Of a DNA stretch of 64,000 nucleotides, positions 55,001 to 64,000 are shown in pieces (the first letter of the stretch is position 1; each line of letters opens with the position of its first letter). The DNA is taken from assembly GCF_017348835.2 (NCBI RefSeq), contig NZ_CP072312.1. The stretch is one strand, 5' to 3'. The DNA is from Escherichia coli. Its GTDB lineage: Bacteria > Pseudomonadota > Gammaproteobacteria > Enterobacterales > Enterobacteriaceae. Position numbers: made by a program.

Positions 55001-58000
55001 TAAGCGCATTCGTGGCGATAGCCCACATATGCGGCCTTCGATGTGTAGGTTTTGGTAAATACCAGGTGGCCAACCACGCTGAATCCCGCATTTTTCCAGG
55101 CGGCCATAAAGCGATCGACGCGGTTCCAGCCATAGAAGCTCACCATCAGCGCATCTTTTTTCAGCACTCGGTACATTTCATTACAGGCCGGTTGCAGCCA
55201 TTCATCGGTTTTATCGCCGGCGATGGTACGCCCCTGACGGTCACGGAAACCGACGAGATATGGCGGGTCGGTGAGGATGAAATCGACAGCATTGCCCGGA
55301 AACGTGGCCATAACACGCACGCAGTCACCCTGGATAAAACGGGACATAACAGCACTCCTTCTCTTACAGAGGGCACCGGGAGGGCGCCCCTGTGGCGCCC
55401 GTTCCCCGCTGCCTGTGGGCTGTTCACCGCGTCCGGTAACGGGTCAGGCCGACCGTGGAATACCGCAGCCGTCGTCTTTTTGACGGCGAGGATATGCCGC
55501 GAAAGCGGCTTGAAGGGCGTTCATCAGAAAAGGGCGACGGGCTGGCGTACACTGTCACCAACGCCAGCCGGGAGCGGTAAAAGCGCCCGTCCCGTGCCCG
55601 GCCGGACGCGGGACACTGACCACAGGCAGCGTTCCTGCCGCGCCGCGTCAGCCGGCGCAGTAAAAAGAGGAGCCCGGCGACATCCTTTACCGGAAAAGAA
55701 ACGGGCGGTTGCCCGCCCGTCTCCGTCATACTTCATCCTCCATAATGCGCCACATTGTCGACTATCCACGCCGGTCCGGTGACTTCCGGCAGCTCATCGT
55801 CATCTGTCGGGGAAGACCATTCAAGTTCCCCCCCACAGCACATCAACGAGCTCTCCACGCTCATACAACTGCCAGCCACAGAAATCACAGCCCTGTTCGG
55901 CATACCAGTGCTCCAGTGTGCAACTGAAACGGCGGCTTAATTCTGCAATAACGTCGCTTTCTGGCTGACACCACGGCGTGTCAAAATCCACCTGAATGAA
56001 GTTGTCTCTCTGACTGCTGATATTCACCTCATACCCCACAGGCCACTTCACGCCATACTGTTCGGTATACCAGTGATATGCAGAAGGAACACCGTTCAGA
56101 ACACCACCGTTAAAGCCGTTTACTTCAACATCCAGGCGGCTGGGCATCAAAATGGGGTACCGTGGTTTCAGCTGAAGTCGGTGAAATTTTCGGAGCCGGT
56201 CATCGTCTTCTCCAGTAATTACCCGCTATACGCATCGATGTCGAACAGGGTCATGGTTCATCTGGAGGCGCTGGCACCGCGCGTTGAGCAGTACTCGATT
56301 GACGAGATGTTTCTCGACGTGCGAGGTATTGACAGCTGCATCGATTTCGAGGATTTCGACCAGCAGCTGCGTGAACACGTCAGGAACGGGACTGGCCTGA
56401 CTATCGGTGTCGGAATGGGGCCAACCAAAACGTTGGCAAAGTCAACACAATGGGCTTCCAAAGAGTGGCCACAGTTTGGTGGCGTGCTGGCATTAACGCC
56501 GGACAATATCCGCCGTGCGGAAAAACTGCTGTCACTGCAGCTGGCGCACGAACCCTGTATTTATCAGGAAGAACTTCAATGTGGTTCTGGAGAGAAAGGT
56601 CCGGGAACTCAATGGAGAAAGCTGTATTTCACTGGAGGAAGAACCGCCCCCCCAAACAGCAGATAGTCTGCAGCCGGTCCTTTAGAGAGCGCGTCACGAC
56701 ATATGAGGCCATGCGCTAGGCCATCTGTCGGTACGCTGAGCGTGCAGCTGAAAAGCTGCGGGGCGAGTGTCAGTTCTGCAGACATATCGCCATTTTTTTG
56801 AAGACGTCACCGTTCGCAGTAAACGAACCGTATTACGGGAATGTGGCCAGTGAAAAACTGCTCATCCCCACGCAGGATACACGGGATATCATTGCCGCTG
56901 CCGTTAGAATTCTGGACAGGATATGGGTGGATGGCCATCGATATGCAAAAGCGGGTTGCATACTCAACGATTTCACTCCTACCGGGGTTTCGCATTTGAA
57001 CCTTTTCGATGATACTCAGCCCCGGAGCAACAGTAACCAGCCGTTGAAAGTCGTGGACAGCATTAACCATTCCGGTCTGGGGAAAGTGTGGTTTGCAGGC
57101 CGAGGCATTGCGCCAGAATGGCAGATAAAGCGTGAGATGTCGTCACCGGCATACACTACCCGCTGGAACGAACTACCGGTCGCCAGACTTTGAAAAAAAG
57201 AAATTCATGGTGATTTCACTATGAAAGAATTAAAAAAAATACTTTATATTCAGTAAAATAAGCATGAAAAAAGCGTGGTGAAAATTGCAAAAAAAGGATG
57301 CCATTTGGCATCCTGATATTAACCCGGCATATCCTATTCAGGCAGTTTTCTTAGAATGTTTTTTATAGCCTCATCGATTTCTAACTGCACCTCATTAGAT
57401 ATGCGGGAGAACTCATAAACAACAAGACGCTTTCTGGGGTCAGTCTTCTTTCTGGCAAATTGGTTACGATCAGAAAACTCTTTCAACTTCTCAGTTTCCA
57501 CTGTTTTTACAGGCCGGTCTGTAAGCAATTTTCCTTCAGACCTGAAGACCGCCAGGATTTTGCTTTTCTCAATTGTTGGATAGTCAGGTAAAGCCATCAG
57601 TTTTTGGCGAACTCTATCCATAAACTCTTCCACTGACATTTTTTTGTTGGTTGCCTTTTCAGACAGTTTCAACAAAAATTGATAGTCCGACAGCGAAATA
57701 TCATTGATTATCGGAAATACAGAGATCATTTCATCCGGTACTGATGCCGCCTGAAATGCGCGTGTTACTTTTGCCGGAGAGATGCTTTCAGCCTGAGCGA
57801 TCTCTTCTTTTGTCATACTTGCCCCATAAGTAACTTCAAGGCGTTTTCCTAGTTCTCGGAGGCTATGCTCTCTGGCTGTCTGTATATCTTTTGCAAGTTG
57901 TCTCGCGTCGGCAATATCAATACTGTCTTTTGTAACCAGTATTTCGAATTTTACGTTGTTATAGATACAGGCAGCACGACGACGCGTACCGTCTAATACT

Positions 58001-61000: not shown

Positions 61001-64000
61001 ATGGCTTCCGAAAGGTGGTTATGGTGATTGCCATGCAGTACGCGAATAAATCAGTGGATAAATGCTTATTACAACGTTTATCGACCTCATACAAACAATG
61101 GTGGTTTATCGCCTTGCCGTATGAAGAAAAATGGAAACAGGTTATTCCGGTGTCCTGATTTTATGATCCACTACACATTCCTGACGAACGCCACTGCATA
61201 AATCACATTGCACATCCTCAGAGAGTACGCAGTATAGGAGGGGTATATATACATTATCGGTATATCAGGCGACTTCTGTCTGTATGTTGTCGGTGCTCGC
61301 CGCAGACCGGTGACCGGGCGAAGCCCGCGAACCGGCGAGGAAGCGCAATGTATCTGTAGTTACAGTGAGCAGGTACGCCCTGAAGCCCTTTCATAAAACG
61401 GTTGTGTGCGCTGTCCTTCGGGAAGATTTATCCACATATCCAGAGGCCCGATCCAGTAAACAGATCCATGAATGATCAATAAAGGATCCATTAAAGATCC
61501 CCATACCGCTGCAAACCTTGCCACTCATGCTCCAGAACCACGATCACATAAGCTGTGGCATGTTGATGATAAACTGTAACATGCTGATGATAAGCTGTAT
61601 TCAGTAATACATATACTGACGTAAGTTAATGACATAAACTATGGTCAGTACACCAGACTCAGTTGTTAAATACAGACTGCAGGTTTTTCTTCAGTCAGTT
61701 GACGGGGGTCTGACACACGATTTTCTGTTTATTCTTTTACTGTCCACAGGCAGGAGGCTTTCTGGAAAACGAAAATTCAGACATCAAAAAACTGTTCGGC
61801 GAGGTGGATAAGTCCTCCGGTGAGCTGGTGACACTGACACCAAACAATAACAACACCGTACAACCTGTGGCGCTGATGCGTCTGGGCGTCTTTGTACCGA
61901 CCCTTAAATCACTGAAGAACAGTAAAAAAAATACACTGTCACGTACTGATGCCACGGAAGAACTGACACGTCTTTCCCTGGCCCGTGCAGAGGGATTCGA
62001 TAAGGTTGAGATCACCGGCCCCCGGCTGGATATGGATAACGATTTCAAGACTTGGGTGGGGATCATTCATTCCTTTGCCCGCCATAACGTGACTGGTGAC
62101 AAAGTTGAACTACCTTTTGTCGAGTTTGCAAAACTGTGTGGTATACCTTCAAACCAGTCATCACGCAGGCTGCGTGAGCGCATCAGCCCTTCCCTGAAAC
62201 GCATTGCCGGTACCGTGATCTCCTTTTCCCGCACCGATGAGAAGCACACCCGGGAATACATCACTCATCTGGTACAGTCAGCCTACTACGATACTGAACG
62301 GGATATTGTTCAGTTACAGGCTGATCCCCGCCTTTTTGAACTGTACCAGTTTGACAGAAAAGTTCTTCTCCAGCTTAAGGCGATTAATGCCCTGAAGCGA
62401 CGGGAGTCCGCCCAGGCACTCTACACATTTATAGAGAGCCTGCCCCGGGATCCGGCACCGATATCGCTGGCGCGGCTGCGTGCACGCCTCAATCTGAAGT
62501 CTCCGGTATTTTCCCAGAACCAGACGGTCAGACGGGCAATGGAGCAATTGCGTGAGATTGGATATCTTGATTACACTGAGATCCAGCGGGGACGGACAAA
62601 ACTCTTCTGTATTCACTACCGGCGTCCCCGGTTAAAAGCGCCGAATGATGAGAGTAAGGAAAATCCGTTGCCACCTTCACCTGCGGAAAAAGTCAGTCCG
62701 GAGATGGCGGAGAAGCTTGCCCTGCTTGAGAAACTGGGCATCACGCTGGATGACCTGGAAAAACTCTTCAAATCCCGCTGAACATAAACTGTAGTCAGTG
62801 AAGATCGCTCCTTTACTGACTACAGCTTATATTAACCGGGGCAGTGAGTGGTTTGCTCACTGCAGTTTATATTCTGTTTCCTGCAGTGCTGTCTGTAGCT
62901 GAGCTGCCATCTGCTGTCCCTTACGTAAGTGATCCCGTAACCTGATGCTGAGGCATTGCTCCCTTCATAAAACATGACTTACTCACTACAGCTTATATAC
63001 ATGCTCCAGCTTATGTTATGTCTGTTCTGCTGACCACTGCTTATATAAGGAAGCGCGTATGCCGTCACCTCAGGGGAGGCAGTGTACGCAGGATCTCCGC
63101 AGCATCCCGCCCGTCACCTGTGAAAGGCACTGCCAGCGTGGCAGCCATATCCAGTGCAAACACTCTGGTATAAACCTCCATAGAACGTGGATCCCTGTGA
63201 CCAGCCAGTGCCTGAATGACTTTCCGGGGCTGGCGGTGATAAAGCATGTGCATGATATAGCTGTGCCGGAAGGTGTGTGGTGTAACCGGAATCGAAAAGT
63301 GTACTCCGTCAGCTTCGGCCCGTCTGACAGCCTGCTTCAGCCAGTTGCGCATGGTTTCGTCGGTCACGGCCCATAATGGTTCACGACGACGGGGCCGGGT
63401 GGTGATCATCCAGCTTTCCATCTGCCTGACATAGCTTATATCTGTCAGCGGAACTAGGCGGACTTCATCTTTTGGCGGGCGTCCGCGTCGCGCACGCACT
63501 TTTTCGGACAGGATCCGCACAAACGGTCTTGCACCATCCAGATCAAATGATTCCGGCGTCAGCATCCGGGCTTCGCCAATACGCATTCCGGTATTCCAGA
63601 GGGTGGCGAACAGCATATGGTGACGCTGATCCGGCATATAGAAGAGAAGGGCACTCACTTCCGGGGCCAGCAGGTAGGCCGGTGTGGCCCCCGTGGAAGT
63701 GGCCATTCTTCTCAGGGAGAGCGCTGTTGCAAAATCCACCCCCGGCGCAATGGGTAACAGGGAGACGCGTTCTGGTGAATTCTGCAGGGGAATGACATTG
63801 TTCATGAGTTATTTTTCACGTAGCACACGCACTGTTTATGGATACAGGTATTCTGACCTGAACGCCCGGATCCTTCCACGACAATAAATCGCAGCGCGCG
63901 GATCCTTTTGTTTGATTATCACGCATTGTTGTGGGTAAAACCAAATACGTAAAGGCGCATTTTGCCGCAGGTATCCCGTCTTAAGCCAGTCATGGTGCGG

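Follow-up and report, generated by a model that had tools for sequence, protein, structure and literature searches.

A predicted pMT1-type P1par partition system, a StbD/StbE toxin-antitoxin pair and a RepFIB replicon in the maintenance region of Escherichia coli plasmid pO103

Results

The partition genes belong to the P1par family

We analyzed a plasmid maintenance region at positions 57000-63100 of a 64,000-nucleotide stretch of Escherichia coli DNA (contig NZ_CP072312.1 of assembly GCF_017348835.2; hereafter the window, meaning the whole stretch). The region contains the partition genes parA and parB with a centromere, parS, a toxin-antitoxin (TA) pair and a RepFIB replicon. Plasmid pO103 of E. 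coli O103:H2 strain 12009 (NC_013354.1) matches window 57000-63100 at 100% identity over the full length, and several other plasmids of enterohemorrhagic E. coli (EHEC) are likewise 100% identical. In PLSDB, at least 80% of this block is found in 95 plasmid records and parts of it in more than 4000; pO103 is listed there as conjugative, with IncFIB as the sole replicon typed (MOB-suite). RefSeq labels the products here as ParB, an "AAA family ATPase," a Phd/YefM antitoxin, a RelE/ParE toxin, a RepB-family initiator and a tyrosine recombinase, and it leaves parS and the iterons unannotated. All the elements that an earlier note on this DNA had placed between 57194 and 63050 were present at or within those coordinates. 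The genes of the par operon and its candidate control region are the following.

59533 to 59582, minus strand: candidate par promoter/operator, with -35 TTGTAC (59581 to 59576) and -10 TACAAT (59559 to 59554) separated by a 16-nt spacer
58293 to 59498, minus strand: parA, a type Ia partition ATPase with an N-terminal helix-turn-helix (HTH); the start is the same in RefSeq
57334 to 58296, minus strand: parB, a centromere-binding protein; 4-nt overlap with parA
57295 to 57314, minus strand: Rho-independent terminator (AGGATGCC-AAAT-GGCATCCT, then T7) found by a terminator scan between the parB stop and parS

Read mechanically, the parA open reading frame (ORF) reaches upstream as far as TTG 59549; the ATG at 59498 is favored by RefSeq and by the alignment with P7 ParA. 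The protein contains the Pfam domains HTH_54 (2e-36) and AAA_31 (ParA/MinD ATPase), and its best match among solved structures was P7 ParA (3EZ9, E 1e-241), with 3EZ2 also matched. ParB matched Pfam PF08775 (3e-35) and TIGR00180 (above cut-off), and its residues 137-317 matched the structures 1ZX4 and 2NTZ of P1 ParB 142-333, which represent the C-terminal BoxB-binding dimer domain.

In global alignments, ParA was 97.8% identical to its counterpart from the Yersinia pestis plasmid pMT1, 88.5% to that of P7, 57.3% to that of P1 and 27.4% to F SopA. The corresponding values for ParB were 80.6% (pMT1), 68.0% (P7), 42.0% (P1) and 29.2% (F SopB). The BLASTP identities were 58% (P1) and 89% (P7) for ParA and 43% (P1) and 68% (P7) for ParB. 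ParB occurs at 95% identity or more on about 200 plasmid records.

The F plasmid SopABC is likewise a type Ia ParA/ParB partition system, with the 43-bp sopC array as a feature of F. The NCBIfam SopA profile gave 81 bits on ParA against a cut-off of 725, and a tandem-repeat search downstream of parB found no sopC-like 43-bp array. A Sop-type system was rejected on the identities of 27% and 29% together with the missing sopC array. By sequence comparison, ParA and ParB are members of the P1par family (type Ia ParABS) and not of the F Sop group; the resemblance to P1 rather than SopAB that the earlier note had claimed is borne out, the two proteins grouping with those of the P1 family. Their closest characterized relative is pMT1, followed by P7.

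The candidate par promoter region is conserved with the upstream regions of pMT1 and the Enterobacter kobei plasmid pEC1382-2. A 13-nt inverted repeat (59564 to 59552 and 59545 to 59533) overlaps the candidate -10 element, and by analogy with P1 parOP, positions 59533-59582 are the likely site of autorepression by ParA.

A complete parS lies downstream of parB

The centromere and its boxes were located as follows.

57198 to 57281, minus strand: parS, aligned with the annotated P1 and P7 parS
57281 to 57276, minus strand: BoxB1, TCACCA
57270 to 57264, minus strand: BoxA1, TTTTCAT
57263 to 57228, minus strand: AT-rich parS center, 36 nt, 14% GC
57227 to 57221, minus strand: BoxA2, CTTTCAT
57219 to 57213, minus strand: BoxA3, GTGAAAT
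57213 to 57208, minus strand: BoxB2, TCACCA
57204 to 57198, minus strand: BoxA4, ATTTCTT, degenerate

The site thus reads BoxB1-BoxA1, center, BoxA2-BoxA3-BoxB2 and then the degenerate BoxA4, and its GC content is 26% versus 48% for the window. When the sequence was aligned by MAFFT with the GenBank-annotated parS of P1 and P7, every box lined up column for column. The window has the same box offsets as P1, P7, pMT1 and four other plasmids: 11 nt from B1 to A1, 8 nt from A2 to A3 and 68 bp from B1 to B2. The earlier note had proposed the AT-rich, box-bearing segment downstream of parB (57194-57333) as a candidate parS and its alignment with P1 parS as a check. That alignment brought out the boxes, and the segment holds a complete parS, but only its distal 84 of 140 bp are occupied.

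A composite motif drawn from other family members, TTTCANNNTGAAATYNCCA, had one exact match in the 64-kb window, directly downstream of parB, and no exact match in 300 Markov-simulated 64-kb sequences. The A2-A3-B2 core of the window parS agrees exactly with the family motif; this core has been described as the "small parS," sufficient for ParB binding (PMC10999674). In Pantoea pPAG03, with a ParB 48% identical, no recognizable A2-A3-B2 core was found within 230 nt of parB. The terminator hairpin between parB and parS is kept in pMT1 and pEC1382-2, whereas it is absent in P1, where parS begins 5 nt past the parB stop.

The par locus is predicted to be of the pMT1 specificity type

Work by Dabrazhynetskaya et al. 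from 2005 and 2009 reportedly established that BoxB and ParB residue 288 set species specificity and partition incompatibility, a role that the summary in PMC10999674 supports. pMT1par of the Y. pestis plasmid pMT1, a member of the P1par family, was reportedly described by Youngren et al. in 2000. The window, pMT1 of strain CO92 and E. kobei pEC1382-2 each carry TCACCA at both BoxB positions. TCGCCA is the BoxB of P1, a Salmonella IncFIB/FII plasmid and Klebsiella variicola pBSKP3, and TTCCCA or a close variant is that of P7 (TTCCCA/GTCCCG) and Klebsiella pneumoniae pKPC-2. BoxB has been identified as the discriminator among P1par family members (PMC10999674). On the protein side, the ParB C-terminal segment EFSDRNQFARKKTDP is the same in the window and pMT1, and both have Asn at the position equivalent to P1 D288, where P1 has Asp and P7 has Arg. 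Because BoxB is TCACCA twice and Asn occupies the D288 position, the par locus of pO103 is predicted to be of the pMT1 specificity type and not of P1 proper. It is further predicted from these sequences to be incompatible with plasmids carrying pMT1par and compatible with P1 and P7.

The window and pMT1par also share the gene order parA-parB-terminator-parS and the 68-bp BoxB spacing, and their DNA is 81.6% identical over window 57069-59674. In both, a TA pair of the Phd/YefM and RelE/ParE kind lies divergently upstream of parA. The two loci differ in BoxA3 (GTGAAAT in the window versus CTGAAAT) and BoxA1 (TTTTCAT versus ATTTCAT), in the weaker central site resembling that for integration host factor (IHF) in the window, and in the host plasmid, which here is a conjugative E. 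coli IncFIB plasmid. With P1 and P7, the window shares the protein families, the BA-center-AABA layout of parS and the box spacing, but not the BoxB sequence or the ParB specificity residue. Structures have been solved for ParA of P1 and P7 and for P1 ParB bound to parS.

Several observations weigh against the proposed reading of the par locus. ParB is just 81% identical to pMT1 ParB, and the identity falls to 50-62% around alignment columns 200-260, in the middle of the protein. BoxA4 is degenerate (ATTTCTT, with a 1-nt shift), a weak A4 being common to pMT1 and E. kobei pEC1382-2. In the parS center, the IHF consensus WATCAANNNNTTR was not found within 1 mismatch, and the site aligned with the P1 IHF site has 3 mismatches, counted by eye, versus 2 in P1 and 1 in pMT1. 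Finally, a simple promoter scan called no par promoter on the minus strand. In view of the ParB divergence from pMT1, identical specificity therefore stays a prediction.

Another possibility is that pO103 par represents a distinct sub-type of the P1par family, so far unrecognized, with its own specificity or incompatibility. The divergence of ParB (81% overall and about 50-60% in the linker that precedes the dimer domain), the altered BoxA1 and BoxA3 and the weak IHF center could together permit coexistence with pMT1-type plasmids. We consider such a sub-type improbable, as it would have to exist despite the TCACCA boxes and the Asn residue; if it were true, it would add to the routes by which new partition "species" are known to emerge.

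It is quite unlikely that the locus has P1 or P7 specificity and so cross-reacts with, and is incompatible with, P1 or P7 prophage plasmids instead of pMT1-type plasmids. P7 is indeed the closest phage relative (88.5% for ParA and 68% for ParB), the GTGAAAT of BoxA3 is shared with P1, and BoxB is one base off that of P1. However, neither BoxB copy is TCGCCA or TTCCCA, and ParB has Asn where P7 has Arg. pMT1 was moreover the closest to ParB in nearly all alignment windows, the exception being columns 161-200, in which P7 was marginally closer. The BoxB sequences and the ParB C-terminus led us to reject both P1 and P7 specificity.

A further reading, that par and parS are decaying remnants while plasmid stability depends on the TA pair and conjugation, would fit a neighborhood in which umuC is a truncated, frameshifted pseudogene and a remnant of an IS3 insertion sequence (IS) lies nearby, as well as the degenerate BoxA4 and IHF site. 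Yet both par genes are intact and their translation is coupled, the A2-A3-B2 core matches the family motif exactly, ParB is conserved at 95% identity or more on the roughly 200 records mentioned above, and the weak A4 is shared with pMT1 and E. kobei. Decay of the locus is accordingly a very remote prospect, and the pMT1 specificity type is the assignment that we retain as the prediction.

The RepFIB replicon carries eleven iterons and a probable CTG start

The replicon lies divergently from par, with about 2 kb of other material between them. Its features are listed below.

61428 to 61436, plus strand: perfect DnaA box, TTATCCACA
61450, 61463, 61474, 61485 and 61496, plus strand: five GATC sites, in an 11-bp repeat with 11-13 bp spacing
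61548 to 61654, plus strand: upstream (origin) iterons B, C, D, D' and D'', starting at 61548, 61569, 61590, 61611 (degenerate) and 61634, with 21-23 bp spacing
61762 to 62781, plus strand: repA, the RepFIB initiator, with a probable CTG start at 61762 after AGGAGG; databases start it at GTG 61804
62784 to 62804, plus strand: downstream (control) iteron E
62830, 62870, 62996, 63014 and 63044 (starts), minus strand: downstream iterons F to J, the last iteron by 63044

RepA contains Pfam Rep3_N and is 99.1% identical to the RepFIB RepA of F, and window 61291-64000, which spans RepFIB and the int gene beside it, shows 96.0% DNA identity to plasmid F. Together with the IncFIB typing of pO103, this upholds the RepFIB assignment of the earlier note, which had set repA about 2 kb from par and counted at least ten flanking iteron-like motifs. 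The annotated repA (61804-62781, plus strand) is 2.25 kb from the parA start, and the count and alignment against F gave 11 iterons, five upstream and six downstream, with the consensus ATAARCTGTRGTNAGT and with the same positions, order and orientation as in F. The motif ATAARCTGTRG with 0-1 mismatch had 10 matches, all within 61548-61644 and 62784-63044, while the remaining ~62 kb had only three one-mismatch matches. The eleventh, degenerate iteron at 61611 fits the 21-bp register, and the end coordinate of the earlier note, 63050, falls just past the last iteron. The iteron names, BCDD'D'' and EFGHIJ, are those of PMC11983097, in which the downstream EFGHIJ block alone displaced a pO157 FIB replicon and thus exerted incompatibility.

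The replicon shares with the RepFIB of F, P307 and pO157 the 11 iterons, the DnaA box, the CTG start and the adjacent int; it differs from F in a few iteron point differences, for example, iteron J, which is ATAAGCAGTGG in the window and ATAAGCTGTGG in F. Tandem Repeats Finder gave a period of 11 and 4.5 copies for the GATC tract, which is conserved with F. The five GATC (Dam) sites beside the DnaA box mirror the five-GATC arrangement of the P1 oriR.

The true rep start has been shown to be a CTG located 14 codons upstream of the usual GTG annotation (PMC11983097). In the window, the N-terminal extension from CTG 61762 aligns with RepA of P1 and pMT1. Since an AGGAGG ribosome-binding site (RBS) precedes this codon and its position matches the experimentally defined start, CTG 61762 is the likely start and the database start at GTG 61804 is probably wrong. 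The AGGAGG of the window is that of the functional pO157 form, and F has the weak AGAAGG. Judged from its sequence, the window RepFIB therefore matches the functional pO157 form and is predicted to be active, in line with IncFIB as the sole replicon typed in pO103. That it is silent as in F, with replication left to another replicon, is extremely unlikely, as the near-identical RepFIB of F is poorly functional but its defect maps to the AGAAGG RBS (PMC11983097), which the window lacks, and MOB-suite typed pO103 with IncFIB only.

RepFIB RepA shares 46% identity with P1 RepA (E 7e-95) and 66% with pMT1 RepA, and a comparison with F RepE showed the two to be unrelated. As RepFIB RepA is a homolog of P1 RepA, the contrast between a P1-like partition system and a RepFIB replicon is weaker than the earlier note implied; the replication and partition modules are therefore both related to P1 and pMT1. 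The arrangement differs from that of P1, in which rep and par are collinear; in the window they are divergent, with the TA pair and an IS remnant between them.

A StbD/StbE-type pair and other elements lie between and beside the two modules

The TA pair, transcribed away from par, consists of two genes.

60216 to 60467, plus strand: candidate StbD-like antitoxin of the Phd/YefM family, 83 amino acids
60464 to 60751, plus strand: StbE/RelE-type mRNA interferase toxin, 95 amino acids; 4-nt overlap with the antitoxin gene

The antitoxin matched PF02604 (PhdYeFM_antitox) at 26.5 bits, below the gathering cut-off of 29.8, and had a weak match to NCBIfam YafN; members of its cluster are named "antitoxin StbD" or Phd/YefM in their sources. 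The toxin scored 40.5 with TIGR02385 (RelE_StbE; cut-off, 27.9), its residues 1-93 matched the E. coli RelE structures over the full length (E 1e-31), and its cluster is named "mRNA interferase RelE/StbE." The stbDE-like pair of the earlier note was therefore recovered by the profile, by the RelE structures and by source naming. The pair resembles StbDE of Morganella R485 and E. coli RelE in having a RelE/StbE toxin, here with a candidate Phd/YefM-type antitoxin encoded upstream in an overlapping operon, the likeness to R485 being one of family label. The TA pair of pMT1 (24253-24806 in the compared pMT1 stretch) had no detectable homology to window 60216-60751. The slot upstream of parA thus holds different TA cassettes in pMT1 and pO103.

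The remaining features of the region and its flanks are as follows.

56137 to 57193, plus strand: umuC (Y-family polymerase) remnant, 5'-truncated and frameshifted, without umuD, convergent with parB
59870 to 60043, plus strand: conserved hypothetical ORF of 57 amino acids (WP_001435278.1), a RefSeq coding sequence flanked by the candidate par promoter and the TA pair
60054 to 60071, plus strand: terminator-like hairpin after the 57-amino-acid ORF, found by the terminator scan
60801 to 61200, plus strand: IS3-family transposase remnant, after the TA pair and ahead of the RepFIB origin
63065 to 63805, minus strand: tyrosine recombinase (Int) adjoining RepFIB, Pfam Phage_integrase

Int is 99.2% identical to the RepFIB-adjacent Int of F and 47% identical to F ResD. 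On the basis of these identities, Int probably acts in plasmid multimer resolution and forms part of the maintenance core. The umuC remnant is split into two ORFs that lie in different frames, each matching UmuC PRK03609. An intact umuDC is the conserved convergent neighbor of parS in related IncF plasmids, and homology to pEC1382-2 begins at 56137.

The 57-amino-acid ORF is present on at least 1000 contigs, always as "hypothetical," and matched nothing in Pfam (E up to 1). In the IS3 remnant, NCBIfam transpos_IS3 covers only profile positions 260-341 (C-terminal), and the ORFs are split across frames. The remnant marks a junction; F homology starts at 61291, and the par homology to pMT1 and E. 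kobei ends near 59674-59717. No RNA family was detected when 55500-64000 was compared with Rfam (E up to 0.1).

Discussion

The results make it very probable that the region is the vertical-inheritance backbone of the EHEC virulence plasmid pO103, composed of a pMT1-type P1par system with its centromere, a StbD/StbE TA pair and a RepFIB replicon. What the sequences show directly is identity, the anatomy of the motifs and their conservation; we infer all activities of these modules from homology to the par systems of P1, P7 and pMT1 and to the RepFIB replicons of F, P307 and pO157. The earlier note had described par, RepFIB and the stbDE-like pair as a maintenance core. All of these modules are present, and the description is refined in that the core additionally holds the tyrosine recombinase beside RepFIB.

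By the model that these homologies suggest, ParB dimers would bind parS through two kinds of contact, the HTH domains engaging the BoxA heptamers and the C-terminal dimer domain engaging the TCACCA BoxB hexamers, and would join the two arms of the site across the bent AT-rich center, which in P1 is bent by IHF. The ParB-parS complex would then stimulate nucleoid-bound ParA-ATP, so that plasmid copies are moved apart. The N-terminal HTH of ParA probably also represses the par promoter at the inverted repeat. Segregants that have lost the plasmid would be killed or arrested by the StbD/StbE pair. Replication would be initiated when RepA, made from the CTG start, binds the five origin iterons beside the DnaA box and the GATC-rich AT tract, while the six downstream iterons may titrate or handcuff RepA and thereby provide copy-number control and incompatibility. 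Multimers would probably be resolved by the adjacent tyrosine recombinase.

A backbone of this kind is already known and widely distributed among plasmids, and the feature is an ordinary one; a literature search on pO103 combined with par, RepFIB and stbD found nothing specific. The practical value of the analysis is modest, and no new biological question is raised. Two routine annotation gaps are corrected, namely, the unannotated parS and iterons and the start of repA, which should probably be CTG 61762. Targets for plasmid-curing cassettes are also defined (parS, the downstream iterons E to J and the StbD antitoxin). For the biology of these plasmids, the assignment to the pMT1 BoxB type allows a prediction of the plasmids that would be unable to coexist stably with an EHEC plasmid of the pO103 type.

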